A stretch of DNA of 64,000 nt from Planctomycetota bacterium (GCA_038040225.1 JBBPIS010000024.1:4259-68258); one strand, 5' to 3'; positions 20,673 through 34,607 are shown, numbered from the stretch's first letter. Program-made: numbers and translations. Notes: generated by a model not told the origin, from the letters alone.

Positions 20673-21344
20673 ATGCTGCCGATGTCATTTCTGTTGGCGC
20701 TGACGAGTTACCTCGCCGGCTCGATTCCGTTCGGGCTGATGATCGGCAGGGCCGTGAAGGGGGTCGATCTGCGGCAGCATGGGAGCGGCAACATCGGGGC
20801 GACCAATGCCGGCAGAGTGCTCGGCAAGAAATGGGGTCTGGTTTGCCTGGGGCTCGATGCGCTGAAGGGCTTGCTCCCCGTGGCGCTGCTGCCTCGATTG
20901 CTGTTTGGAGTGGATGAACCAGCGCTGGCTCATTTGACGGTGCTGGCGGGCGTCTCGACCATCGTGGGCCACATGTTTTCGTGCTGGCTCGGCTTTCGAG
21001 GCGGCAAGGGAGTGGCAACGTCGCTGGGCGTGGTCGCAATGCTCAGCCCGTGGGGCTTGCTCGCCGGAGCGATTGCGTTCTTCGGCGCGTTTGCAATCTG
21101 GCGGATCGTCTCGCTGAGTTCGATGATCGCTGCCGTCACCTTCGGGGTCTGCCAGTTGGCAATGCTCAGACCCTCGCCGTTCGCGGGCGAGACGTGGAGC
21201 CAGGGGCTGTTCGCCATCGCGGTACCGCTGCTGATCCTGTTCCAACATCGAAGCAACGTGCGGCGGCTGCTCCGGGGAGAGGAATCACGATTTGGAAAAA
21301 CGGTGGACGTGAAAGAGACGAGCGGGAAAGAAACGAAGGGCTGA
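20673..21344 (+). CDS. plsY: Glycerol-3-phosphate acyltransferase PlsY
   Basis: YLAGSIPFG, GSGNIGATNA.R, DALKG, GH.FS...F.GGKGVAT, HRSNV.RL..GEE. Confidence 0.95.
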   Translation: MLPMSFLLALTSYLAGSIPFGLMIGRAVKGVDLRQHGSGNIGATNAGRVLGKKWGLVCLGLDALKGLLPVALLPRLLFGVDEPALAHLTVLAGVSTIVGHMFSCWLGFRGGKGVATSLGVVAMLSPWGLLAGAIAFFGAFAIWRIVSLSSMIAAVTFGVCQLAMLRPSPFAGETWSQGLFAIAVPLLILFQHRSNVRRLLRGEESRFGKTVDVKETSGKETKG

Positions 21345-21384
21345 TGTCCTCCGCACGTGCCGACTCAAAGGGGGTACGTCCTGC

Positions 21385-21615
21385 TCAACAGACTTCGACC
21401 TCATTCATCACGAGGGCATCGTCGGCCGCTTCCATCGCGGCGTGAGTCACGAGTTGCTTGTTGTAATAAGTCGACGTGCGGCCCGAGATGATCACGCACC
21501 CATCAATGACGTGGACCCGCAGCCCACGGACTCGGCCGCCGGTTTTTGACTGCACCGCGAGTTCGATCTGTTCTGCCAGTACTTCGGGGCCGGGGACGAA
21601 CAACGTAGCACTCAT
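21385..21615 (-). CDS. Small BON-like domain protein
   Basis: GGRVRGLRV...ISGRTSTYYNKQLV.HA...NEVEV; AAGGAGG RBS upstream. Confidence 0.75.
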   Translation of the reverse strand: MSATLFVPGPEVLAEQIELAVQSKTGGRVRGLRVHVIDGCVIISGRTSTYYNKQLVTHAAMEAADDALVMNEVEVC

Positions 21616-22131
21616 GACAATCCTCCTTGAAAACCAACTGCCTCGCGGGAGACGGCACTTCCGTCGTAACACCCTTTGAGGCTTGAAACCATTCGTCTCG
21701 CAGCGAGCACGAATGACGAGCGACCTTTGGAACCGACTGGTGATGTGGAAGTAGTTCGTGGCTCACATCCCATGCGGCTCACGAAACCCTCAACAAATGT
21801 GACCAACAACGAACAGAGATTCGTGAATGGGCTTCCCTGCACCCGTTTCAACCTCCCTGTTACACTGACTCACGATTATTTGCCAGCTTGAAACGGTGTT
21901 TGGCGATTCAGGACTCGGATCGACAAGATGCATTGGCCCGGCCAGCCCTGCCTGCTCGACGCGACAACAAAATACCCAACGCTCGTGTTGATCGTCAAAC
22001 ATAATCTTCGTAACCGGCCAGAATTCTGAAGATCGCCCCGCCGAAAAAAGCTGACTGAGTTGACGAGGCAACGCAGGCAAGACTGCCTCGCTCAAGTGAA
22101 ATGACCTGCCCGCTCATCGAGAACACCCGAC

Positions 22132-23190
22132 ATGCAAGACGTCCCCCTTCAGTTCCTCAAGGATCTGCTTCACGCCCCCAGTCCGTCGGGTTATGAACGA
22201 CCCGTGCAGGATGTGGTCCGTCGATTTGCGAAGGGCTTCGCCCATGATGTGAAGACCGACTGGCATGGCAATGTGGTGGCGTCAGTCAACCCGACAGGTT
22301 CGCCGCGCATCATGCTGGCCGGTCATTGCGATCAGATTGGACTGCTGGTCAAGCACATCGACGACAAGGGCTACCTGTGGGTCCACGCCATCGGAGGCTG
22401 GGATCCTCAGGTGTTGATTGGCCAGAACGTGCAGGTCTGGACGAAGGGCGGTCCCGTGGCGGGAGTGATCGCGCGAAAGCCGATTCACCTGCAAACGCCC
22501 GACGATCGCAAGACGGTCGCCGAGATCAAGAACCTGTGGGTCGACATCGCCGCGAAGGACGAAGCCGAAGCGCGGGAGATCGTGGCCATTGGCGATCCGA
22601 TCACCGTCGCACTGGGTTTTCGCGAACTGAGGAACGGCTTCGCCGCAGCCCCCGGCATGGACAACAAGGTTGGGGCTTGGACCGTGATGACGGCTGCCGA
22701 ACGAGTCGCGAAGGGGAACCCCAAGGCAGCCGTCTTCGCCGTCTCGACTGTTCAGGAAGAGATCGGCCTGCGCGGGGTGCAGACCAGCGCATTCCAGATC
22801 GATCCGCAACTCGGCATCGTGGTGGATGTGACTCACGCGACCGACTGCCCAACGATTGATGAGACTCAATTCGGACGGATCAAGGTCGGAAAAGGCCCCG
22901 TACTCTATCGCGGTCCCAACGTGAACCCGGTTGTGTTCGAGCGGCTTGTTGAACGAGCGAGCGCGGCTGAGATCCCCGTTCAGATCAACGGCCTCGCGAC
23001 CGCGGCGAGCAACGACGCGGCCGAACTGCAACTGACGCGCGGCGGCGTCGCCACGGGACTCGTCTGCATTCCCAACCGTTACATGCACAGTCCCGTTGAA
23101 GTGGTGTCGCTCAACGACCTTGATCAGGCTGCCGAGTTGATCGCCCGATTCTGCCTGTCTGTCGATGCGACGAGCGACTTCACACCGTAG
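22132..23190 (+). CDS. M42 family metallopeptidase
   Basis: AGHCDQIG, DNKVG, QEEIG, DVTH, RYMHSPVE. Confidence 0.92.
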   Translation: MQDVPLQFLKDLLHAPSPSGYERPVQDVVRRFAKGFAHDVKTDWHGNVVASVNPTGSPRIMLAGHCDQIGLLVKHIDDKGYLWVHAIGGWDPQVLIGQNVQVWTKGGPVAGVIARKPIHLQTPDDRKTVAEIKNLWVDIAAKDEAEAREIVAIGDPITVALGFRELRNGFAAAPGMDNKVGAWTVMTAAERVAKGNPKAAVFAVSTVQEEIGLRGVQTSAFQIDPQLGIVVDVTHATDCPTIDETQFGRIKVGKGPVLYRGPNVNPVVFERLVERASAAEIPVQINGLATAASNDAAELQLTRGGVATGLVCIPNRYMHSPVEVVSLNDLDQAAELIARFCLSVDATSDFTP

Positions 23191-23202
23191 AGCCGTAAAA
23201 CG

Positions 23203-23349
23203 GAAATCCCAAGCACGAAGTTCCAAACACCAAACGAATCTCAAATCCCAAACAATCGAAATTCCAAACGGCTCCGTCGGGGACGTTTCTGTCATTGAGA
23301 TTTGGTGTTTGTGATTCGTTTGGGCTTTGGTCCTTGAAGTTTGGAGTTT
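23203..23349. repeat. 7-mer-periodic long inverted repeat (CCAAAC/GAATC type)
   Basis: CCAAACACCAAACGAATCTCAAATC versus GATTTGGTGTTTGTGATTCGTTTGG. Confidence 0.75.
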
Positions 23350-23433
23350 GTCCGCCGCCCGTTGCCACGATTCCGAATCATTTGCTAGAGTCCGTCGCTC
23401 CCATCACGATTCCGCAGGAGGCTTTGGCCACAC

Positions 23434-24225
23434 ATGGCACGATTCACACAGGCCGATTTGATGGAACTCAACAAGTCGTTTGAGGACCGTTCGCCGGAGG
23501 ACCTGCTGCGCTGGACGAAGGTCGTCTTCGGCGAGCGGGTTGTCGCCCTGACCGCCATGCAAATGGCGGGCAGCGTCGTCTGTCACATGATCAGCGCGAT
23601 GAAGCTGGGCATGAAGGTGGTGTTCGTCGATACGGGCGTCAATTTCCAGGAGACACTCGACACGCGCGACCGCCTCGCCCGCGAGTACGGGCTGGAGATC
23701 ATCACGCTGCATCCCCAGCAGACGATGGAAGAGCAGACCAGGCAACACGGAGTCCTCTATCTGTCACCCGAGGGCCAGAAGCAGTGTTGCGACATGCGGA
23801 AGACCGAGCCGCTGCTGGCGACGCGCGGGCAGTTCGACTGCCTGATTGGAAGCCTGCGCCGCGCCGAGGGGGGAGCCCGCGGCGGCTGTCCGATTCTCTC
23901 CGTCGATCCGCCGATGAACTGCGTGCGAATCAATCCGCTCGCCAACTTCAGCAACGACGAGATGGACACGTATGTTGCCGACCACAACGTCATCGTCAAC
24001 CCGCTGCATGAGCAGGGTTTCTCGACGATCAGTTGCAACCGCTGCACGACGCCTGTGCTTCCGAACGAACCCAAGCGAGCCGGCCGCTGGCGACACCTCG
24101 GCCCGTGGTCTGTTTACTGCGGCATCAATCCGACGGACCTCGCCGGCGGAACGTCCCTCGCCATCGACATCCCCCAGGAACTAATCGACCGCCTCCTTGG
24201 CCGCACCACCGACTTCAGCATCTAA
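23434..24225 (+). CDS. cysH: APS/PAPS reductase (CC...CxxC Fe-S type)
   Basis: [32 protein letters not shown]-terminal YCGIN. Confidence 0.88.
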
Positions 24226-24240
24226 CCAATTCATGACCTC

Positions 24241-24264
24241 GTAGATGAGTTCGCAAGAACTCAT
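24241..24264 (+). repeat. Single GTAG-type REP-like hairpin
   Basis: GTAG-ATGAGTTC-GCAA-GAACTCAT. Confidence 0.6.
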
Positions 24265-24377
24265 TTCCTGATCGTGTGCTGGGAGGAATCAAACGGGGGC
24301 CGAATTGCAGTTGTCGCGCGGTTTTGCTATCTCCCGCGCCGCTTTTACGACCGCAGACGCCACCGGGAGTCGCTGAC

Positions 24378-25514
24378 ATGGTTTCACAGGGAAGTGGTCG
24401 CCCTCTCGGCGGTGCTCAACGGGAAAGCAGGATTGCTGTCGCTCCTTCGGCCTCTGAGACTTCCAGGACCACGGCGGACTCGTTGATTGACGTGCTTCAA
24501 CAGCGAGGTTTCGAAGCCGAACAGGTGCGCGACGGTGATTCGTCCGCGCAGCAGGCCGGGCTGTTGATCCTGGTGGGACATGGAATGGATTTCCCACGTT
24601 GGGCGGCTCAGTTTGTCGAGCCAACACCGCGACCGCGCACGTTGCTGTGGCAACTGGAGCCGCTGCCGCCGCCGGGGACGACGGATGGCATGCACGCGAT
24701 TGGGCGGCAGATCGCCCGGGCGGGGTGGCAGGAATGCATTGGTGGGCCGGGGCGTTTCTTGGAAGGCCGCGTGCCATTGCCCCGAGTGGTTCGGGGTCTC
24801 GTGCGGCGTTGGCATGCAGCGAGATTGCGGCGAGAACTGCTTCGGGTTGGCGGTCATGAGTGGGATTTCGGCGCGGGGTGCATGATGCAGAACGCGATTT
24901 GGTTGCACACACATGCGATCGGGCCGAGCCGCTGGATTGACGACCTCGTGTGCAGCCTGCCGACTCGGGTGGAGTATCTGCGGGAGCAGGGGATCCCGTC
25001 GCGTTTTGTACCGGTCGGATACCACCGTCTGTGGGGAGAAGACCGTCAGCGGCCGCGCGACATCGACATGCTGTTCATCGGCCGACTGCGTGCGATTCGA
25101 CGTGCGAGGCAGGTGCGCGCCGTGGTCGGACGGCTCAATCGGCTGGGCTTCAAAGCCGTCATCGCTCCGCTGGAGACGTTGGGAGAGGCTCGGACCGAGT
25201 TGCTGAGCAGAACGAAGATTGTGCTGAATATATTGAACTTCCCCTGGGAGTTTCCCGGCATGCGGTTACTGATGGCGATCGGCTGTGGAGCGTTGGTCGT
25301 TTCGGAGGTGTGCGCGGATACGCGCCCGTGGATTGCCGGAGAGCATTTCGTTCCCGTGACGAGTTCGACAACCGTCGAAACATTGGTTTCTTTGTTGAAC
25401 GACGATTCGTGTCGCGAGGCCCTGGCGCGGCGAGCTCGTGACTGCCTGCTCGCACAGAACACAATGGCGCATTCGGTGGACCAACTGCTGATCAAGGCCA
25501 GATCCTGCTGCTGA
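24378..25514 (+). CDS. Glycosyltransferase-like protein (GT-B, CgeB-type C-terminus)
   Basis: RDIDMLFIG, LSRTKIVLNI, MRLLMAIGCGALVVSE; ATG 24378 chosen. Confidence 0.7.
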   Translation: MVSQGSGRPLGGAQRESRIAVAPSASETSRTTADSLIDVLQQRGFEAEQVRDGDSSAQQAGLLILVGHGMDFPRWAAQFVEPTPRPRTLLWQLEPLPPPGTTDGMHAIGRQIARAGWQECIGGPGRFLEGRVPLPRVVRGLVRRWHAARLRRELLRVGGHEWDFGAGCMMQNAIWLHTHAIGPSRWIDDLVCSLPTRVEYLREQGIPSRFVPVGYHRLWGEDRQRPRDIDMLFIGRLRAIRRARQVRAVVGRLNRLGFKAVIAPLETLGEARTELLSRTKIVLNILNFPWEFPGMRLLMAIGCGALVVSEVCADTRPWIAGEHFVPVTSSTTVETLVSLLNDDSCREALARRARDCLLAQNTMAHSVDQLLIKARSCC

Positions 25515-25675
25515 CGCCCCGCCGGTGCCCGGCGGCGTGCTGTTCAGTTTTCTCGCAACTGGCCAAGGTCCGAATTCCATGTTGGCTCAATCGGTCAATT
25601 CTGTTACAGGACCGCCACGAACAGCGGTCGCTTCGTGCGCACGTGGGAATGCTCATTCCATGATGGGTTGCAAAG

Positions 25676-26887
25676 TTGGTTTCAGACAGCCGGGTCTCGA
25701 TTCCTGTGTACCGTCCCGCCATTGGTCCGGAAGATCTTGCGGCTGTGGGACAGGTGTTGCACGGGCGCTGGCTGGGTCCGGGGGAGCAGACCCGGCAGTT
25801 TGAAGATCGGGTGCGGGCACTCGCGGGCACGCGGCACGCGATCGCGGTCAGCAGTTGCACCGCCGCACTGCACTTGGCGCTGGAGGCGCTGGACCTTGAG
25901 ACGGGCGACGAAGTCATCGTGCCATCGTTGACGTACTGCGCGGACGTGCAGGCGATTCTGGCGGCGGGGGGCACTCCGGTCTTTTGCGAGGTGAGTCCCG
26001 AGACCCTGAACCTCGACGCCGACGACGCATTGGCGCGAATCACTTCCCGCACGCGAGCCATCTTGCCCGTGCATTTCGCCGGACAGGTCTGCGATATGGA
26101 ACGCCTTTGGGCCGCCACGCGGGAAGCGGGAATCGCTCTGATTGCCGATGCGGCGCATGCCTTCGGATCGTCGCGGACCGGGCGTCCGGTCGGGCAGTTG
26201 GCTGACGCCACCTGTTTCAGCTTTGGTCCGCTCAAGAACATCACCTGTGGTGATGGCGGTGCCATTACCACGGACGATGATGGACTGGCAGAACGAGTCG
26301 CACGGCGCCGGCAATTGGGATTCGCCTCCGACACTTGGACGCGGCTGACTCAGCAGCGGACCGGGAAGTATGCGGTGATCGATCACGGATTTCGGTATCA
26401 CCTGAATAACCTTGCCGCGGCATTGGGGCTCAGCCAACTTTCCAGGCTGGAGAGCTTTCGACAGCGTCGTCTCACGCTGGCGAAGTTCTACGACCGGGCG
26501 TTTGCGTCGTTGCCGAACCTCTGCTTGCTGGTGCGTTGCGATCTCGAAGCATTTCCTCACATGTATGTCGTGCGAGTGCTCGACGGAAGCCGCGATGCGC
26601 TGGTCGAGCACTTGCAGCAACAGCGAATCGAAACCGCTGTGCAGTATCCGCCGAATCATCTTCAACCGGCCTTCGCTGCATTCGGGCAACCGCTGCCTGT
26701 CACGGAGCAACTGGCTGAGCAGATCGTGTCGCTGCCATTCTTCGTCGAGATGACCTCGGCGGAACAACAGTGTGTGATTGCAGCGGTCGTGGAATTCATG
26801 CGGTCCGACACGGTCAGCGGCAGCGACAGTTCGTGCATCCCGATGGTCGCCGATTTCGCGGCGCGGGAGGTTCCGCATGCAGCCTGA
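25676..26887 (+). CDS. DegT/DnrJ/EryC1/StrS PLP-dependent sugar aminotransferase
   Basis: SSCTAALHLAL, PVHFAG, DAAHAFG, SFGPLKNITCGDGG, GFRYHL. Confidence 0.93.
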   Translation: MVSDSRVSIPVYRPAIGPEDLAAVGQVLHGRWLGPGEQTRQFEDRVRALAGTRHAIAVSSCTAALHLALEALDLETGDEVIVPSLTYCADVQAILAAGGTPVFCEVSPETLNLDADDALARITSRTRAILPVHFAGQVCDMERLWAATREAGIALIADAAHAFGSSRTGRPVGQLADATCFSFGPLKNITCGDGGAITTDDDGLAERVARRRQLGFASDTWTRLTQQRTGKYAVIDHGFRYHLNNLAAALGLSQLSRLESFRQRRLTLAKFYDRAFASLPNLCLLVRCDLEAFPHMYVVRVLDGSRDALVEHLQQQRIETAVQYPPNHLQPAFAAFGQPLPVTEQLAEQIVSLPFFVEMTSAEQQCVIAAVVEFMRSDTVSGSDSSCIPMVADFAAREVPHAA

Positions 26888-27539
26888 CCGTGGTGTTGCG
26901 ATTCAGAAGGTGCTGATCCTGGGGACGCGGGTCTTCGCTGAGGAAGTCGCCGATCTCGTGCGCGAGACGCCGGGTCTCGAATTGGCGGGGTTCGTCGAAA
27001 ACCTGGAGCCCGACCGTTGCCGGGAGCAGCTTGACAGCCAGCCGATCTACTGGATCGATGACTGCCGACCGCTGGCAGCGGACCACCGAGCCTTATGCGG
27101 CATCGGGACCACGCACCGCCGACGGTTTGTCGATGCAGCGGCCGAGCGGGGCCTGTCCTTCGCCACGTTGGTGCATCCGACGGCTCGTGTTTCACTGACA
27201 ACGCCGCTGGGTTCGGGCTGCATCATCAGCGCTGGAGTGATGATCGCCGCCAAGAGTTCGCTGGGCGAACATGTGATTGTCAATCGCGGCGCCCTGATCG
27301 GACATCACACGACGATCGGAAGCTTCACGACGATTGGCCCGGGGGCCAACATCGCCGGCAGATGCCGCATCGGACAGGGAGTGTATGTGGCGATGTCGGC
27401 GGTCGTGATTGACGGCACCACCATCGGTGACGGCAGCGTGGTCGGGGCAGGTGCGGTCGTCACCAAAGACGTTCCGCCGCACACGCAGGTGATGGGCGTG
27501 CCGGCTCGCATCGTCAAAGAGAACATTGAAGGTCGATGA
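26877..27539 (+). CDS. NeuD/PglD-like hexapeptide-repeat sugar acyltransferase
   Basis: TLVHPTA, HHTTIG, IGDGSVVGAGAVVTKDVP, GVPAR. Confidence 0.9.
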   Translation: MQPDRGVAIQKVLILGTRVFAEEVADLVRETPGLELAGFVENLEPDRCREQLDSQPIYWIDDCRPLAADHRALCGIGTTHRRRFVDAAAERGLSFATLVHPTARVSLTTPLGSGCIISAGVMIAAKSSLGEHVIVNRGALIGHHTTIGSFTTIGPGANIAGRCRIGQGVYVAMSAVVIDGTTIGDGSVVGAGAVVTKDVPPHTQVMGVPARIVKENIEGR

Positions 27540-27585
27540 GGCCGGAAATCCGTCGTCGCTCCATTGGCGCTTCCGAGTTGCAAAC

Positions 27586-28434
27586 ATGCCTCCACTGATC
27601 ATCAACGCGGCTTTGACCGGCATGGTCCCCACCAGGCGGGACAACCCGCATGTGCCGATTTCGCCGCGGGAGATCATTGCCGACGCCAAACGCTGTCGTG
27701 ACGCGGGGGCGACAATCGTGCATCTGCACGCGCGGGAGAACGATGAGTCGCCCAGCTATCGCCGAGAGATTTACGCCGAGATCTTCGCCGGAGTTCGTGC
27801 CGAGTGTCCGGAGTTGTTGATCTCGGGCTCCTGCAGCGGACGGACGTTCGGTGAGTTCTGGCAGCGCAGCGAAGTCTTGTCGTTGGATCCGGAGTTTGGC
27901 TCGCTGACGTTGGGCTCGCTCAATTTTCCGACTCAGCCGTCGATCAACTCGCCCGACATGATCCAGCAACTGGCGGCCGCGATGTCCGCCCGCGGCATCG
28001 TGCCGGAGTTGGAATTGTTCGACCTCGGCATGGCCGAATACGCTCATTTCCTGATCCACAAGGGAGTGCTGCGCCCGCCGTTCTATGCGAACATTCTGCT
28101 CGGCTCGCTGGGGACGCTCGCCGCGACTCCCGACAACTTGTGCCTGATGATCCGTGCATTGCCCCCCGGCACGACGTGGTCCGCGACCGGGATCGGTCGA
28201 TATCAGTTCTTTATCAACTCGTTGGCCGTCACGATGGGCGGTCATGTTCGCGTCGGACTGGAAGACGCGATCTACTACGACTGGGACAGCAGGCAGCCGG
28301 CCACCAACGCCGGCTTGATTGACCGGGTCGTTCACCTGGCTCGCGCGGTCGGACGCGACATCGCCTCCCCCGGGCAGACCCGTGCGATCATCGGCCTCTT
28401 GTCTCCGCCGGCAACCGTCCGCTCCGCGGCGTAG
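27586..28434 (+). CDS. Beta-keto acid cleavage enzyme (BKACE/DUF849, Kce-like)
   Basis: NAALTG, VHLHAR, GSLNF, PELELFD, GGHVRVGLED. Confidence 0.9.
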   Translation: MPPLIINAALTGMVPTRRDNPHVPISPREIIADAKRCRDAGATIVHLHARENDESPSYRREIYAEIFAGVRAECPELLISGSCSGRTFGEFWQRSEVLSLDPEFGSLTLGSLNFPTQPSINSPDMIQQLAAAMSARGIVPELELFDLGMAEYAHFLIHKGVLRPPFYANILLGSLGTLAATPDNLCLMIRALPPGTTWSATGIGRYQFFINSLAVTMGGHVRVGLEDAIYYDWDSRQPATNAGLIDRVVHLARAVGRDIASPGQTRAIIGLLSPPATVRSAA

Positions 28435-28586
28435 GCCCGTGACACATGACGGTTCTTCAGGAGATCGGGAGAATCAAAGGGGCCAGGAGTCGTAGATTTC
28501 CTTCCTTGGATCGTCTCGAGATCGATCAGCGAGCGCCGCTTGCGAACGAGCAAACTGGATCGTACGGGATGCGATGTTCCCTGCGA

Positions 28587-29453
28587 TCAGACTTGCAGGT
28601 GATCGAGGGCATCGACCGGCGACATCAGGTAGCTGATGTAGAACGGCCCGAACTCGGCGTACTTGGCCGAGGCGGTGTCGAAGCGCATCGTGTAGACGAT
28701 CTCTTTGATGTACGCCGGGTTTCGTCCCCAGAGAGTGACGCCCCATTCCCAATCGTCGAAGCCCGTCGAGGCCGTGATGAGTTGCGAGGCCTTGCCGGCG
28801 AACTTCATCCCGCTCGTGGCGTGCTCGGCCATCAGGGCGGATCGTACGCTGAACGGCTCGGTAAACCAGTTGGCGATCGGATGGCGGGCCTTGTTCATCG
28901 GGTAGAAACAGGTCACGGGCCACGCGGGGAAATCGGGGCACAGTCGCTGCTTGTTCATCATCGGCAGGCGCTGTCCGTACGCGGCGACCTTCGCAGCGTA
29001 GGCCGGATCGTCGGGTGAGACTCCTTCGCGTTGCAACCGCTCCGAGTACTGTTCGATCGTCGGAACGTACTCGGAGATTTCGGTGATCGATACGAACGAG
29101 TAGGTCGGGATCAGGACCGAGCCGAGCGGACTCGAACGGACTCCCTGGCGAATGCCATCAATCAGCAACGGGTCGGGGTCCATGACCATCAGGCCGAGAT
29201 CGGCCTTGTGACCGGAGACGACCGACGTCTGCAACCGTTGCGGCGCGCCGGGCCGCGCCGGGTCGAGCAGATGCGTCAGGACTTCACGCCCCTCGACGAC
29301 TTGTTCTTCAGACAACTGCCTCAGCGCGGCTTGATCGACGCGATAGTAGAGATGCAGGCAGTGCCAGCCTTCGGAAAGTTTGATGCTCGGTTCGGGCAGG
29401 GCTTGAGGTGCATGAGTCGGTCGGGTCACAGGCGGGGTTCCATTCACAGTCAT
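28587..29453 (-). CDS. chdC: Coproheme decarboxylase (chlorite dismutase family)
   Basis: EGWHCLH, CFYPMNKAR, EH..SG.KF, STGFDDWEWGVTL, MRFD.ASAKYAEFGPFY; start moved downstream of the REPIN. Confidence 0.85.
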   Translation of the reverse strand: MTVNGTPPVTRPTHAPQALPEPSIKLSEGWHCLHLYYRVDQAALRQLSEEQVVEGREVLTHLLDPARPGAPQRLQTSVVSGHKADLGLMVMDPDPLLIDGIRQGVRSSPLGSVLIPTYSFVSITEISEYVPTIEQYSERLQREGVSPDDPAYAAKVAAYGQRLPMMNKQRLCPDFPAWPVTCFYPMNKARHPIANWFTEPFSVRSALMAEHATSGMKFAGKASQLITASTGFDDWEWGVTLWGRNPAYIKEIVYTMRFDTASAKYAEFGPFYISYLMSPVDALDHLQV

Positions 29454-29462
29454 AGTGGGTTC

Positions 29463-29533
29463 GTGGCGGACGCTGCCAGCGTCCATCGACAACCAAATGC
29501 AAAGCTCACGCCGACGCTAGCAGCGTCGGCCAC
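29463..29533. repeat. REPIN: inverted pair of GTGG-type REPs (same family as 12473)
   Basis: GTGGCGGACGCTGCCAGCGTCC and reverse copy GTGGCCGACGCTGCTAGCGTCGGC. Confidence 0.75.
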
Positions 29534-29566
29534 GATGTCGCGAACGTGGAGCCTCCGAGTCTTCGG

Positions 29567-29941
29567 TTACTCGTCGTCCATCGATTTCTGTTCGGACTTG
29601 GGATAGCCGGCCCACACGAGCGGCTTGGCGGCCATCGCCAGCTCACCTTGTTCCAGAACTTTGAGAACTTGCTGGACGGTCATGTTCGTGGAGAGTTCCT
29701 TCTTCAGTCTCTGAACGACCTCGGGTGGGACGCAGTTTTGGCCCTTGCCGGCATCACCCTCGACGAACGCTCGCTTCTGGTCGAAGACGGCCCAGAAGAT
29801 CGTTCGTTCGTGGTTCTTGGCACCATCGCGACTCTTGACCGCCGCGCCGCCCTTGCTGCGGTTGCCGTTGACGCGGTACATCTCCCGACGTTCAAAGATG
29901 ATGGCGATGACATTCCAGTCTTTTGTGCCAAACCAGCTCAT
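29567..29941 (-). CDS. Hypothetical protein (124 aa)
   Basis: Globular-looking composition, typical codon usage, GGAG upstream of ATG 29941. Confidence 0.7.
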   Translation of the reverse strand: MSWFGTKDWNVIAIIFERREMYRVNGNRSKGGAAVKSRDGAKNHERTIFWAVFDQKRAFVEGDAGKGQNCVPPEVVQRLKKELSTNMTVQQVLKVLEQGELAMAAKPLVWAGYPKSEQKSMDDE

Positions 29942-30275
29942 GGAACCGCTCCTGTTGGATCGAACTCCCAAACTCGGGACGTTTGTACCAACCTACTGTG
30001 GTTTTCGCCACGACCCGCCCGATGGGACTTCCTGATGGGATTGTGCGAGGATTTGAAGAGGCGTGTCTCGTTGAAGTGGCTCAAGAATCGCGCGGTTGAA
30101 TGGCCCTGAAGTCCGGCTTTTCGGAAAGCCGGACTTCTCTCCGCGCGGCAATCTCCCGGAATGAAGTCCGGCTGACAAAGCTAAACCGGACTTCAGCCGT
30201 ATTGCGGGAAACGCCGCCAGTCACGAGACTGGCCGACCTCACTGCGACCGGACTCTTGGAAGGCACTCGTTCCAC

Positions 30276-32111
30276 ATGTCGATGGCTGATTCTTCCGCCG
30301 CTGGGAATCGACGCGATGGAGTGGCGTGGCCGGTTCAGGTCGCCGCGTGGTCTCTCGGGCTGGCCGCGTGCATCGTGGGGATGCTGGGATTGGTTGCCGA
30401 ATGGGAACCGGGACTGGCAACCGCGCAGCTTTTCCTGATGGTGACCGCGCCCATCATCGTGATGCTGCCCGAGCGAAAGAGAGTCAAGACGACGGAGGCT
30501 CTTCCACCTCGCAGCGGCCTCACGGTTGACTGGTCTCTCGCGCTGTTGTGCGGTGTCGTTTCACTGGCCGTGAGCGCAGGAATTGGTTCCCGGATCGGAG
30601 ACCTGCCGCCGGCGTACCACGACGAGTACAGCTATCTCTTCCAGGCCAAGACGCTGCTGGCCGGCCGGTTTTCGTTTCCCAGTGTTCCCGTCCGTCCCGA
30701 GCTGTTCGATCAGATGCACGTTTTGAACGAAGGCCGGATGGCCTGCCGCTTTTATCCGGGGACCGGCTTGTGGCTGGCCCCCTTCGTGGCGCTGGGCCAT
30801 CCGTATTGGGGACCGCAGCTGGCCGGAGCGATCGCCACGATGCTGATCTATTGGACGGGACGTGAACTCGGCGGGCGAGTCGTCGGCTTCGTGGCGAGCC
30901 TGACGATGGCGCTGTCGCCGGGCATCGGACTGTTCGGCAATCTGCTGCTCGCCCATCATCCGACGCTCGTCGGTTTGTCGGCGTTCTTGCTGGGAATTAT
31001 TCGACTGCGGCGAACGCGTTCAGGTTGGGATGCGGGACTCGCGGGAGTCGGCCTCAGCTACGCCATGCTTTGCCGGCCGATGACGGCGGCGGGAGTTGGC
31101 CTGCCGTTCGGTCTGGATGTCCTTTGGTGGCTGATTCGAGGCGGTGAGTCTGCTCCCGCCGATCGCGCTGCGCTGTCGGGTGAACCGCCGGAAGGACGTC
31201 CTGCGCGGCGAGTTCCGGTGCTGCTCGGTTTGGGCCTGCCGCTGGTCTGTGGCTGGTGTGTGATGCTCGCGTACAACCGCGACGTGACGGGTGACTGGCT
31301 CACGTCGCCGTATCAGCTTTACACGGAAATCTACACGCCGCGCCATGTCTACGGGTTCAACAACGTCGTGCGCGGCGAGCAACATCTCGGGCCGAAGGTC
31401 ATCGACCATTACGACCGCTGGACCGAGAATCTCACGCCGTCGCTGGCCGCGTCCAATGCGTTCATTCGCTGGGTGGCAAGCTGGATCTGGACGGTGGACG
31501 TTCTGCCGCTGTTGCTCGCAGCGGTGATCGTGGTCGGTTCCGCCGGACGGCTCGATCGCCGGTGGCTGCTCGTGGCGGCGGCGATTTTGAGTCTGCATGC
31601 CGTTCACGTTCCGTACTGGTACGTCGGGATCATGGGTTGGCATTACGTGTTCGAGTCTGCGCCGCTCTGGTGTCTGTTGCTGGCGGCGGCGACGCGGAGC
31701 CTGTTCGCCGCGTGGACCGATACTCGCCACAGTGGCCTCAAGATTTGGTGGCTTTGTTTGATCGGGCTGTCTCTCGCCGGAAGTTATTTCGGCCTGGCAG
31801 GGCTTTGGCAGCCGCGGATCGAACGTGGAATCAATACCATCGCTCATCCTCGCCGTCAGCAGGCGGAAGTCCGTCGCTGGATCGAAGCCTCGGTGACTGA
31901 GCGACCGGCGTTGGTCTTGATCGATCAGCACGAGACCGAAGCCAGTCATCTGGATTTCATCACCAACGAACCGGGCCTCGCTTCGGCGATTTTGCTCGCA
32001 CGCCTGCGCGCCGGAGTGACCGATCTCTCGGAAATCGCCCGCGACTTTCCTGATCGATCCGTCTACGTGGCGTCACCTCATCGGAAGTCGATCCGGCGAG
32101 TAAGGCCCTGA
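30276..32111 (+). CDS. GT-C/PMT-like integral membrane glycosyltransferase
   Basis: HDEYSYLFQA loop after the first TMs, many TM helices, C-terminal soluble domain. Confidence 0.7.
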   Translation: MSMADSSAAGNRRDGVAWPVQVAAWSLGLAACIVGMLGLVAEWEPGLATAQLFLMVTAPIIVMLPERKRVKTTEALPPRSGLTVDWSLALLCGVVSLAVSAGIGSRIGDLPPAYHDEYSYLFQAKTLLAGRFSFPSVPVRPELFDQMHVLNEGRMACRFYPGTGLWLAPFVALGHPYWGPQLAGAIATMLIYWTGRELGGRVVGFVASLTMALSPGIGLFGNLLLAHHPTLVGLSAFLLGIIRLRRTRSGWDAGLAGVGLSYAMLCRPMTAAGVGLPFGLDVLWWLIRGGESAPADRAALSGEPPEGRPARRVPVLLGLGLPLVCGWCVMLAYNRDVTGDWLTSPYQLYTEIYTPRHVYGFNNVVRGEQHLGPKVIDHYDRWTENLTPSLAASNAFIRWVASWIWTVDVLPLLLAAVIVVGSAGRLDRRWLLVAAAILSLHAVHVPYWYVGIMGWHYVFESAPLWCLLLAAATRSLFAAWTDTRHSGLKIWWLCLIGLSLAGSYFGLAGLWQPRIERGINTIAHPRRQQAEVRRWIEASVTERPALVLIDQHETEASHLDFITNEPGLASAILLARLRAGVTDLSEIARDFPDRSVYVASPHRKSIRRVRP

Positions 32112-32176
32112 ACGTGGAAGGGGCCCTGAGGTTGTTGATCAATGGATCGACGAGTGGCTCGCTGACCCGGCACCGC

Positions 32177-32224
32177 AAAGAAAAGAAGCGGGCTTGTTGT
32201 GACAGGCACAACAAGCCCACTTCT
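32177..32224 (-). terminator. Intrinsic terminator of the Cys-rich gene (likely bidirectional)
   Basis: GGGCTTGTTGTG-ACAGG-CACAACAAGCCC with a T tract on the minus strand. Confidence 0.8.
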
Positions 32225-32283
32225 CAAGTACCAACTCCACGTCATTCATGCGAAGCACGAGGACGTGCGGCAAACCTGAAAAA

Positions 32284-32589
32284 TCAGGTCGCTGGCTTCG
32301 GAGCGTTTTCAACTGGCGGCTGAGGAGCAGCGGCCGGAGCGGCGGCAGCAGCAGCCGCGCCATTTGTGGCACTGCAACCGGAAGTGCAGCCCGTGGCGCA
32401 AGGAGCGGCCGTGGCACAGCAGGTCGCGGCTGGTGCACAGCAGCTCTGGCGCTGCGTGTGGCAGCAATTGGTGCGTGCTGGCCGGCAGCATCGCTGCCGA
32501 GCACAACAACGACCGGCTTCAGCCGTGTCGGGGCTCATCGCAAATCCAGCAACACCAAATGCCAACGCCAAACCAAACAAACGAGTCAT
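32284..32589 (-). CDS. Small secreted Cys-rich protein
   Basis: AAGGAG RBS; signal peptide ending AEA; five CC pairs; Ala/Pro tail; own terminator. Confidence 0.8.
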   Translation of the reverse strand: MTRLFGLALAFGVAGFAMSPDTAEAGRCCARQRCCRPARTNCCHTQRQSCCAPAATCCATAAPCATGCTSGCSATNGAAAAAAAPAAAPQPPVENAPKPAT

Positions 32590-32937
32590 ACTAATCTCCT
32601 TCAAACTTGACACAGATTTCAAACACAGGCCGCCGACCCTCGGCGGACCAACCTCCCGCAGCAGTTCTGTCCTTAGACCGTTCTACGCGAGGAATTCTTT
32701 TGGGCTGACTGGGGGAACTACTCCAAGTTTCCCTTCGGGGAGGTTGCAGAATATCGGCATGAATCTGGTTGTCAAACGACCGGGGGAAGTTTTCTTGAGA
32801 TTGAGGATTGGCGAAGATTGACCAAATCTTGACATTCGTGCCGAATTACTCTTTCGCATTCGGTGCAGATTGAGGTGACTTGCCACTTCGCGGGTGGATG
32901 GCGACATGCGTATTCTGAGCACGTGTGACGGACTCTT

Positions 32938-33828
32938 ATGGAGCGCGATCCAATCGTGGCCGACAACTTTGCAAACCGCATGTGGTCTTTTGAAGGATTC
33001 TGTCGTGACTTGGGATCGATCCCCCTCATCATGGGAATCGTCAATATCACGCCGGACAGTTTCTCGGATGGAGGCCGATTCCTCGCGCCTGAGGCCGCGC
33101 TCGAACATGCCCTGAGTCTGGCGGACGAAGGGGCCGACATCCTTGATGTGGGGGGCGAGTCGACTCGACCGGGAGCCGACGCCGTGTCGCTCGACGAAGA
33201 ACTTCGTCGCGTCATTCCGTTGATCGAGCAACTCGTGCACAGAACCGACGTCCCGATCTCGGTCGATACGTCCAAGGCAGAGGTGGCGCGTCAGGCATTG
33301 CAGGCGGGTGCCCGAATCGTCAATGACATCTCGGGCCTCCGCTTCGATCCCAAAATGATCGAGGTCTGCCGCGATGCTCGGTGCGGAGTCGTGGTGATGC
33401 ACATGCAGGGCACTCCGCAAACGATGCAGATCGAGCCCCGCTACACCGATGTCGTGGAGGAGATTTGCGAGTACTTCAAAGAGCGTCTGCAAACGCTGGG
33501 TCGCGGCGGAATCGATGCCGAGCGAATCGTCCTCGACCCGGGAGTCGGCTTCGGCAAGACGGCTGAACACAATCTGGAGATTCTCTCGCACATCGCCCGC
33601 TTCCGCGCGTTGGGCCGGCCGGTCCTGATCGGCCACTCACGAAAGCGGTTTCTGAAGAAGATCATCGGTCGAGACGTGGACGAGAGCCGGTTTGGAACGG
33701 TCGGTGTCTCAGTGGCACTCGCGCAGCAACACATCGACATCGTGCGAGTTCATGACGTGGCCGCCAACCGGGATGCGATTGCTGCCTATCGCGCAGTGTG
33801 CCGGTCGCTCCACACGCCGGACCGTTAG
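32938..33828 (+). CDS. folP: Dihydropteroate synthase
   Basis: MGIVNITPDSFSDGG, GGESTRPG, SVDTSK, NDISG, LDPGVGFGK, SRKRF, RVHDV. Confidence 0.96.
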   Translation: MERDPIVADNFANRMWSFEGFCRDLGSIPLIMGIVNITPDSFSDGGRFLAPEAALEHALSLADEGADILDVGGESTRPGADAVSLDEELRRVIPLIEQLVHRTDVPISVDTSKAEVARQALQAGARIVNDISGLRFDPKMIEVCRDARCGVVVMHMQGTPQTMQIEPRYTDVVEEICEYFKERLQTLGRGGIDAERIVLDPGVGFGKTAEHNLEILSHIARFRALGRPVLIGHSRKRFLKKIIGRDVDESRFGTVGVSVALAQQHIDIVRVHDVAANRDAIAAYRAVCRSLHTPDR

Positions 33829-34607
33829 AGTTCTCCGCCGGACCTGTCGGACCACCACGGCAGGCTGACTCCGCCATCGATGGTCAGCGTACTGCCCGTG
33901 ACATAGTCCGCGTCGTCGCTGAGCAGGTACGCCACCGCCTTGCCGATTTCGTTCGGTTGTCCGAGACGCTTCCACGGCAGCTTTCTGGCACCGGCGGCCA
34001 GTTGTTCCTCGGTGAAAAACTTTCGCTCACCGGGGGTGTCGATCCAGCCCGGATGGACGATGTTGACCCGAATGCGATGCGTTGCCAGTTCAATCGCGGC
34101 CGTTCTGGACATGTGGTCGATCGCCGCCTTGGCCATGTTGTAGGCCATCGCGGTCGGAACCGGGATGACGGCGTGAGGCGAGCTGATGATCACGATCGAG
34201 CCTCCCTGCCCCTGCTTGACCATCTGAAGTGAGGCGGCTCGCAGACCGTAGAACGCCCCCCACATGCCGACATCGATTGTCCGGCGGAAGCCGTCGAGAT
34301 CGGCCTCGATCATGAGTTGCCGGTCGCTGTAGACCGCATTGGACACGAAGAGGTCGAGACTGCCGAACTCTGCCGCTGTCTGGGCGACCATCTCCTCGAC
34401 CCGCTCCCGATTTGAAACGTCTCCCTGAAGGGTAATCGCCCGGCTGCCGGATCGTCGTACGACGTCGGCGACTTCCTCGGCCTCGCCCTGATGAGAGTTG
34501 TAGTTGATCGCGACGTTCGCCCCCGCCTTGCCGAGTTCCTCGGCACAACCTCGACCGATTCCGCGCGACGCTCCCGTCACCAAGACGTTCCGACCCTTCA
34601 GGTTCAT
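33825..34607 (-). CDS. SDR oxidoreductase (glucose 1-dehydrogenase-like)
   Basis: TGASRGIG, YNMAK, IRVNIVHPG. Confidence 0.9.
   Translation of the reverse strand: MNLKGRNVLVTGASRGIGRGCAEELGKAGANVAINYNSHQGEAEEVADVVRRSGSRAITLQGDVSNRERVEEMVAQTAAEFGSLDLFVSNAVYSDRQLMIEADLDGFRRTIDVGMWGAFYGLRAASLQMVKQGQGGSIVIISSPHAVIPVPTAMAYNMAKAAIDHMSRTAAIELATHRIRVNIVHPGWIDTPGERKFFTEEQLAAGARKLPWKRLGQPNEIGKAVAYLLSDDADYVTGSTLTIDGGVSLPWWSDRSGGEL

Follow-up and report, generated by a model that had tools for sequence, protein, structure and literature searches.

When amino sugars carry N-acyl groups other than acetyl, this affects antigenicity, recognition by phages and by the immune system, and surface chemistry; the routes to such groups that are known to us rely on acyl carrier protein (ACP)- or ligase-type enzymes. 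In the modified-viosamine island of Pseudomonas syringae, a KAS III, an ACP and a reductase provide for the 3-hydroxybutanoyl group, and the tetronate genes of Vibrio cholerae O1 form a dedicated acyl-donor branch in an amino-sugar locus. A different candidate partner is found in a stretch of 64,000 nucleotides from Planctomycetota bacterium (GCA_038040225.1 JBBPIS010000024.1:4259-68258; this whole stretch is hereafter the window), where a block of four genes at positions 24378-28434 ends with one for a BKACE. [quoted passage not shown] The four genes, all of them intact, are the following:

24378-25514 (ATG start) or 24492-25514 (GTG start, independent gene call), + strand: predicted CgeB/YkvP-like GT-B glycosyltransferase (PF13524)
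25676-26887, + strand: DegT/DnrJ/EryC1-family pyridoxal phosphate sugar aminotransferase (PF01041, E 5.5e-106)
26877-27539, + strand: NeuD/PglB/VioB-type left-handed beta-helix sugar N-acyltransferase (TIGR03570)
27586-28434, + strand: BKACE (DUF849) zinc TIM-barrel enzyme (PF05853, E 6.7e-84)

The acyltransferase start overlaps the DegT stop by 11 nt and BKACE begins 46 nt past the acyltransferase, and the order, common strand and 46-nt gap given in a preliminary description of the window were all borne out. The boundaries of the block were identical in an independent gene call on the Logan contig.

The sugar genes resemble those of PerA/PerB (GDP-perosamine, Caulobacter), VioA/VioB (dTDP-viosamine) and PglE/PglD (bacillosamine), in which, as here, a PglD-like hexapeptide N-acyltransferase that has this catalytic His comes after a DegT aminotransferase. 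However, the acyltransferases of these systems use acetyl-CoA and have no BKACE partner, while the block in the window lacks a dehydratase and its identities to them are low. As in the P. syringae viosamine and V. cholerae O1 tetronate loci, the N-acyltransferase may be accompanied by genes for a non-acetyl donor, but theirs are of ACP, fatty-acid-synthase or ligase type, whereas here a single BKACE would suffice via CoA. In the Arn pathway (ArnB, the N-formyltransferase ArnA, the GT2 ArnC and the GT-C ArnT), an N-acylated 4-amino sugar is likewise handed to glycosyltransferases; of the solved structures, that of ArnB matches the DegT protein best, and an ArnT/PMT-like membrane protein is encoded 1.8 kb from the block. 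Nevertheless, the DegT protein falls below the ArnB equivalog, the window has no ArnA, and the GT-C-like gene is ancestral and below the Pfam threshold.

Regarding BKACE itself, Kce belongs to the same Pfam family of TIM-barrel Zn enzymes, shares the H46/H48/Glu ligands, E143, S82, R222 and D227, and would be expected to carry out the same type of reaction, but the match to its structure (2Y7D) is 189 bits and the window BKACE stands in a glycan-gene context and not in lysine fermentation. BsfD, a BKACE homologue of the flavophos phosphonate pathway, illustrates the recruitment of the family into biosynthesis, and performs acetyl transfer and decarboxylation instead of retro-Claisen cleavage (bioRxiv 10.64898/2026.01.15.699783). 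It has a Phe at the position of Kce Tyr145 and an Arg of the beta-3 loop near a distal anionic group; unlike in the window BKACE, 20 residues are inserted into that loop, and BsfD acts on a phosphonate keto acid and releases no acyl-CoA. In the literature searched, no paper was found that ties BKACE/DUF849 to glycan or amino-sugar pathways, and the NetSyn preprint, which deals with BKACE contexts, says nothing of neighbouring aminotransferases or acetyltransferases. What is new here is that the four-gene block is an insertion with an empty site in congeners. The BKACE in it is a member of an uncharacterised clade that is defined by a residue signature.

A cassette inserted at a site empty in congeners

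The four genes are a compact, horizontally acquired cassette, present in one species among the congeners compared. The inserted, species-specific segment covers 24228-28579 (about 4.35 kb) and is delimited by the following features:

23434-24225, + strand: left boundary gene, ancestral, for a phosphoadenosine phosphosulfate (PAPS)-reductase-domain protein (PF01507, E 1.9e-33)
24228-24377, no strand: left edge, a non-coding leader that separates the first cassette gene from the point where congener homology ends
24281-24301, + strand: left copy of the imperfect direct repeat GGGAG(G)AATCAAA(C)GGGG, found by eye and by fuzzy search
28435-28579, no strand: right edge, a non-coding stretch from the BKACE stop to the resumption of congener homology
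28467-28484, + strand: right copy of the imperfect direct repeat, with 2-3 indels relative to the left copy
28587-29492, - strand: right boundary gene, ancestral and convergent, for a chlorite-dismutase-family protein (PF06778, E 1.7e-44)

When positions 21000-34000 were searched against 32 congeners, DNA homology ended at about 24225-24227, at the end of the PAPS-reductase gene, and restarted at about 28580-28587; among the matches listed, none lay between 24227 and 28580. The PAPS-reductase gene has 74-89% DNA identity in congeners, where it abuts the chlorite-dismutase-like gene (79-94%), and in three of them (G028, G029 and G016) the empty site is seen on one contig, with the two flanking genes 50-257 bp apart. 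BKACE was not found in any of the 32 congeners, in 27 further genera of the class or in 20 same-family genomes that came with a later phylum sample, nor in any of the 56 same-family genomes searched; in its own 8.24-Mb genome, the gene is present in a single copy.

The closest relative, G006, has flanks of 89-94% DNA identity. At the cassette site it has defence-like genes, namely TIR, Roc-COR/LRR and STAND-HEAT genes (L041, on G006:C502; L042, on G006:C43). Since different genes are carried there, the site between the PAPS-reductase and chlorite-dismutase-like genes is a variable hot spot.

The GC content of the insert (0.62) equals that of its surroundings, and the segment 24228-28579 has no tRNA, integrase, transposase open reading frame (ORF) or Rfam match. 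The status of genomic island is thus drawn from the presence of the cassette here and the empty site in close relatives; mobility genes, a tRNA target and deviant composition were not found. A repeat search gave no clean repeat flanking the cassette, and the imperfect repeat listed above (18-21 nt) is not present in the empty sites of G028, G029 and G016; its core has one exact match in the window versus 0.04 expected, and the bracketing pair may be a recombination scar or chance. Promoter and terminator scans yielded nothing above shuffled expectation. The gene arrangement itself is beyond chance, because the four genes recur in this order, on one strand, in two further phyla or classes (L030 and L031, below) and because the block behaves like a single insertion.

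The BKACE clade and its partners

The window BKACE matches PF05853 over profile positions 1-274 of 274 with 281.9 bits (cut-off 24.8), and it has thousands of homologues, the nearest of which (66-83% identity) come mostly from metagenome-assembled genomes (MAGs) of Planctomycetota. No gap interrupts its alignment with Kce (2Y7D) in the first 105 residues (residues 3-105). H46, H48 and E226, the Zn ligands, correspond to H46, H48 and E230 of Kce, and E143 aligns with Kce E143 and with E171 of PdKce, which is the catalytic base of that enzyme (PMC11961710). These ligands and the catalytic Glu are invariant in 124 homologues, and S82, R222 and D227 are also kept; judged by conservation, the catalytic core is intact. 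In contrast to Kce, residues E14, T106, N108, Y145 and A86 are replaced by V, S, T, F and R, respectively. Together with neighbouring positions, these define a clade signature, M13-[V/I]14-P15, S84, R86, S106, T108 and F145, which is invariant or nearly so in the 124 homologues, through all architectures and fusions. The Tyr near the CoA sulfur (Tyr145 in Kce, Tyr173 in PdKce) is Phe145 in all 124 clade members; Phe is also found at this position in 3NO5, 3CHV and BsfD, and it is not decisive for activity. Residue R86 sits in the loop after strand beta-3, and its invariance suggests that the distal group of the BKACE substrate may be polar or anionic, because the same loop of BsfD holds an Arg that contacts the distal phosphonate.

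Neighbourhoods of clade members were collected from three independent sources: encoding contigs with precomputed Pfam matches, named species-representative genomes (a tblastn panel with Pfam), and an even sample of 400 genomes from the phylum. At about 30 of 34 clade loci, BKACE has an acyl-CoA acyltransferase next to it or fused with it, whose fold is either hexapeptide or GNAT, the two being unrelated. These loci are not all phylogenetically independent, although the variety of architectures and fusions is; a glycosyltransferase is usual. The conservation of BKACE with DegT and acyltransferase, put forward in the preliminary description as a check, is thus seen, the same order being kept in distant lineages. 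On this evidence of gene order and fusion, the BKACE clade is functionally tied to acyl-CoA-dependent acyltransferases and to glycosyltransferases. The architectures are:

Type A, CgeB-like glycosyltransferase / DegT / NeuD / BKACE in the same order and strand: window, L030 and L031; permuted in L048
Type B, NeuD / BKACE / GT2: L011, L022 and L053
Type C, GNAT / 0-2 RimK-like ATP-grasp paralogues / BKACE / GT2: many Pirellulales contigs (L013, L015, L017, L019, L020, L028, L029 and L032)
Type D, DegT / hexapeptide / WbqC / BKACE behind a GT41-TPR gene: L035, Methylobacter
Type D, BKACE / hexapeptide: L034, Saprospiraceae
Fusion BKACE-PglD: P0122 and P0125
Fusion hexapeptide-BKACE: P0126
Fusion GNAT-BKACE: P0124, L051 and L052, adjoining a PF14397 'sugar-transfer associated' ATP-grasp
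Fusion BKACE-GT4: P0121
Fusion BKACE-sulfotransferase: P0123 / L061 (JGI metagenome)

Identities of the type A proteins to those of the window are 32% (glycosyltransferase), 51% (DegT), 56% (NeuD) and 66% (BKACE) in L030, a Verrucomicrobiota MAG, and 29, 55, 55 and 65% in L031, a Phycisphaeraceae MAG. In L030 (5070-6344), tblastn aligns the DegT homologue over 379 residues, yet the ORF list shows none that long, which points to a frame broken by a stop or a frameshift, or to an error of assembly. In type B, the BKACEs of L011 and L022 are 82-83% identical to that of the window. Altogether, a NeuD/hexapeptide acyltransferase stands beside a clade BKACE in L011, L022, L034, L035, L050, L053, L054, L058 and L059, and a GNAT acyltransferase in L013, L015, L017, L019, L020, L025, L027-L029, L032 and L049; the clade signature is also present in the acyltransferase fusions P0122, P0124, P0125, P0126, L051 and L052. 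No relative was detected in viral contigs scanned with BKACE.

The commonest planctomycete context combines a GNAT, one or two RimK-like or PF14397 ATP-grasp enzymes, BKACE and a GT2, with no aminotransferase, and looks like an undescribed amide-forming sugar-decoration module; its GNAT and BKACE are joined in one protein in two genomes. The P0125 fusion lies in a large glycan cluster on an ENA contig, with a free-standing PP-binding carrier protein encoded just upstream of it, an AMP-binding/PP-binding enzyme and GNATs further upstream, and DegT, four GT2s and a methyltransferase downstream. Judged from this context, the acyl chemistry of some relatives may be more elaborate.

Three distant BKACEs of the same phylum (34-40% identity) have no such signature, and their neighbours are a thiamine pyrophosphate enzyme with a carboxyltransferase, a class-III aminotransferase, and genes of an extracellular contractile injection system (eCIS). 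Because these BKACEs lack both the signature and acyltransferase or glycosyltransferase neighbours, the tie is a property of the signature-bearing clade and not of the whole family. The same comparison bears on whether the window gene could be an ordinary catabolic BKACE, of the lysine fermentation, carnitine or 3-oxoadipate type, that travelled with sugar genes. Its top NCBIfam matches are indeed Kce and 3-oxoadipate:acetyl-CoA acetyltransferase, and R86 is common to the structural-genomics BKACEs 3NO5 and 3CHV. However, the scores are far under both equivalog cut-offs (252.1 vs 382 for Kce, NF052387; 230.7 vs 350 for the acetyltransferase, NF053568), and Glu14, which in Kce reportedly binds the substrate amine, is Val in the window BKACE. 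Moreover, no partner gene of such catabolic pathways lies nearby, and linkage or fusion to acyltransferases recurs across phyla while the BKACEs of the phylum in catabolic contexts lack the signature. A catabolic role is therefore highly improbable.

It could also be considered that the cassette and its relatives yield something other than an N-acyl surface sugar, e.g., a small glycosylated or amidated metabolite, for which BKACE would give or remove a beta-keto acid or acetoacetate, its link to the acyltransferase being indirect. Such a product would fit the commonest planctomycete context (GNAT / RimK-like ATP-grasp(s) / BKACE / GT2, without aminotransferase), the occurrence of a signature-bearing member in a roseoflavin-type set on a Streptomyces plasmid, and the fact that no flippase, polymerase or initiating transferase adjoins the window cassette. 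On the other hand, N-acyl amino-sugar glycans are classically made by the trio of DegT, NeuD/PerB/VioB and GT-B enzymes, GT2s of the neighbourhoods are similar to those for polysaccharides such as TuaG, EpsE and EpsD, one ATP-grasp neighbour is the 'sugar-transfer associated' PF14397, and P0125 lies within a large multi-glycosyltransferase cluster. A product of this other kind is rather improbable.

The other cassette proteins are those expected of amino-sugar pathways. The glycosyltransferase matches PF13524 (Glyco_trans_1_2) with 47 bits against a cut-off of 25, in its C-terminal part only, and its homologue clusters are 92-100% PF13524. Its AlphaFold2 model, built from a five-sequence alignment and of moderate quality (pLDDT 69.7), matches GT4/GT-B structures only, namely BshA, PimA, PglA and SdgB (Foldseek probability 1.00, E ~1e-6, TM 0.4-0.5), and supports a predicted GT-B fold of the CgeB/YkvP-like type for the first gene of the cassette. 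Homologues occupy the same first position in L030, L031, L043, L047 and L048.

The DegT protein matches PF01041 with 355.3 bits over profile positions 3-359 of 360 and carries an SFGPLK...GDGG motif, which in this family holds the Schiff-base lysine. Among solved structures, it is closest to ArnB (1MDO, 236 bits), TlmJ and perosamine synthases, but it scores below every NCBIfam equivalog cut-off, those of PseC (298.7 vs 423.5), ArnB (288.8 vs 631), WecE, DesI and LegC (these last three lower still), so that neither its regiochemistry nor its nucleotide carrier is assigned. The acyltransferase passes the TIGR03570 subfamily (178.6 bits vs a cut-off of 160.8) and is nearest to the solved structures of PerB (4EA7) and VioB (7TXP), with phmmer scores of 84-87 bits; its catalytic His, H143, corresponds to PerB His141 and does not vary among 10 homologues. 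The NeuD proteins encoded ahead of BKACE in L011 and L022 share 79-85% identity with it. Since none of the four cassette proteins reaches an NCBIfam equivalog cut-off, the sugar and the acyl group cannot be named.

Proposed acyl supply and its alternatives

Taken together, the cassette can be read as a horizontally acquired plug-in that puts an N-acylated 4-amino sugar on a surface glycan, with BKACE as its acyl-donor branch, a reading to which we give about an even chance. It sharpens the proposal of the preliminary description and is the best supported of the readings considered. A keto-sugar nucleotide made elsewhere in the genome, e.g., by RmlB, would be aminated by the DegT enzyme, most likely at position 4 because its nearest relatives are ArnB and perosamine synthase. 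The amine would then be N-acylated by the NeuD/PerB/VioB-type acyltransferase and the sugar moved onto an acceptor by the CgeB-like GT-B enzyme. BKACE would convert a small beta-keto acid and acetyl-CoA, by Claisen/retro-Claisen chemistry, into acetoacetate and a non-acetyl acyl-CoA serving as donor for the acyltransferase. The parts of this scheme that we infer are which way the BKACE reaction runs, the passing of its product to NeuD, amination at position 4 and placement at the surface. The genome encodes an RmlB above cut-off and other 4,6-dehydratase-like short-chain dehydrogenases/reductases, which could supply the keto sugar of the cassette.

The strongest argument for BKACE as acyl-donor enzyme is partner replacement: the unrelated hexapeptide and GNAT folds both adjoin or fuse to the clade, and both need an acyl-CoA donor. 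The structure of the family is also informative. In the solved BKACEs, the barrel is capped and a single entry channel is filled by acetyl-CoA (PMC11961710). Because acetyl-CoA fills this sole channel, the keto acid must be small, which favours a free small molecule over a nucleotide sugar.

Several observations weigh against acyl supply by BKACE. The cassette has no gene for making a beta-keto acid, so the BKACE substrate would have to be a common metabolite, and the obvious products of common beta-keto acids (succinyl- and malonyl-CoA) are already abundant in cells. CgeB-glycosyltransferase/NeuD/DegT cassettes without BKACE on the contig are found in L043 and L044, with NeuDs that are 60-61% identical to that of the window and closer to it than the BKACE-linked NeuDs of L030 and L031, and the NeuD alignment shows no residue pattern that separates BKACE-linked from BKACE-free homologues. 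Furthermore, four clade loci have no acyltransferase nearby. In L023 (3269-6256, a Pirellulaceae MAG), a sulfotransferase and a sulfatase lie upstream of BKACE; in L047, only a glycosyltransferase gene lies within 1.5 kb of BKACE; in L061, BKACE is fused to a sulfotransferase; and in L062 (95041-113856 of the Streptomyces camelliae plasmid NZ_CP115301.1), BKACE stands between ribA and a class I S-adenosylmethionine (SAM) methyltransferase gene. The fusions to GT4 (P0121) and to sulfotransferase indicate a link with glycan tailoring in general and not with acyl transfer alone. A weaker point is the replacement of Kce Tyr145 by Phe, as in BsfD with its non-canonical chemistry, this Phe being found in several other BKACEs as well.

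The L062 BKACE has the full clade signature (54% identity), and its further neighbours are rosB, ribC, ribX and a gamma-glutamyltransferase gene, a roseoflavin-type set. The case recalls BsfD, whose product targets lumazine synthase.

Some of the same observations would be accommodated if BKACE tailored an acyl group already bound to the sugar, NeuD adding a malonyl group that BKACE would C-acetylate and decarboxylate into an N-acetoacetyl sugar, itself a precursor of the common N-3-hydroxybutanoyl decoration. BsfD, which has Phe at the Kce Tyr145 position like the clade, does carry out acetyl transfer and decarboxylation (bioRxiv 10.64898/2026.01.15.699783). Fusions of the clade to GT4 and sulfotransferase would be expected of enzymes that co-tailor one scaffold, cassettes that lack BKACE but have a NeuD much like that of the window would fit an optional later step, and no extra precursor gene would be needed, malonyl-CoA being universal. 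However, the capped barrel with its sole channel filled by acetyl-CoA has no space for a substrate of nucleotide-sugar size (PMC11961710), Phe145 is also present in the ordinary BKACE structures 3NO5 and 3CHV, and the cassette has no reductase. Tailoring on the sugar is thus considered rather unlikely.

With regard to the clade as a whole, a tentative possibility is that it represents a hitherto unrecognised glycan-tailoring enzyme with new carbon-carbon chemistry, either producing an acyl-CoA that the cell does not otherwise contain or acting on a sugar-bound malonyl-type group, and giving an N-acyl amino sugar as yet undescribed from surface glycans of bacteria. In the first case, the acyl-CoA may derive from, e.g., oxaloacetate, malonate semialdehyde or another common beta-keto acid, and may be used by the hexapeptide and GNAT N-acyltransferases. 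Were acyl supply by BKACE correct, a one-enzyme CoA route would open a new source of acyl diversity for glycans, and a large uncharacterised DUF849 branch would gain a function. The occurrence of the cassette in one species makes this directly testable in a clean comparative setting, since the congeners with the empty site serve as control.

Genes next to the cassette

Beyond the right boundary, the ORF at 30276-32111 encodes a polytopic membrane protein of 611 aa. It had been described as a nearby GT-C membrane enzyme; the ORF exists, but its PMT_2 match is below the Pfam cut-off (22.5 vs 26.1 bits), and archaeal STT3 is matched with E 0.0037. Its assignment as a GT-C of the PMT_2/ArnT-like type is plausible, not established. 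The ORF has 72-84% DNA identity in congeners, which lack the cassette, and because of this conservation it is a core gene of the genus, outside the cassette. The GT-C-like and chlorite-dismutase-like genes were both rejected as cassette members, as both are kept in cassette-free congeners. Two + strand ORFs, at 28446-29018 and 29031-29606, have no family match and were discarded as shadows of the chlorite-dismutase-like gene.

In L031, a chlorite-dismutase-family gene (1191-1946) lies about 2 kb upstream of the cassette, and a UDP-sugar pyrophosphorylase gene (PF01704) is also present. Since the chlorite-dismutase-like gene of the window is ancestral, the proximity of such a gene to the L031 cassette is probably a coincidence.

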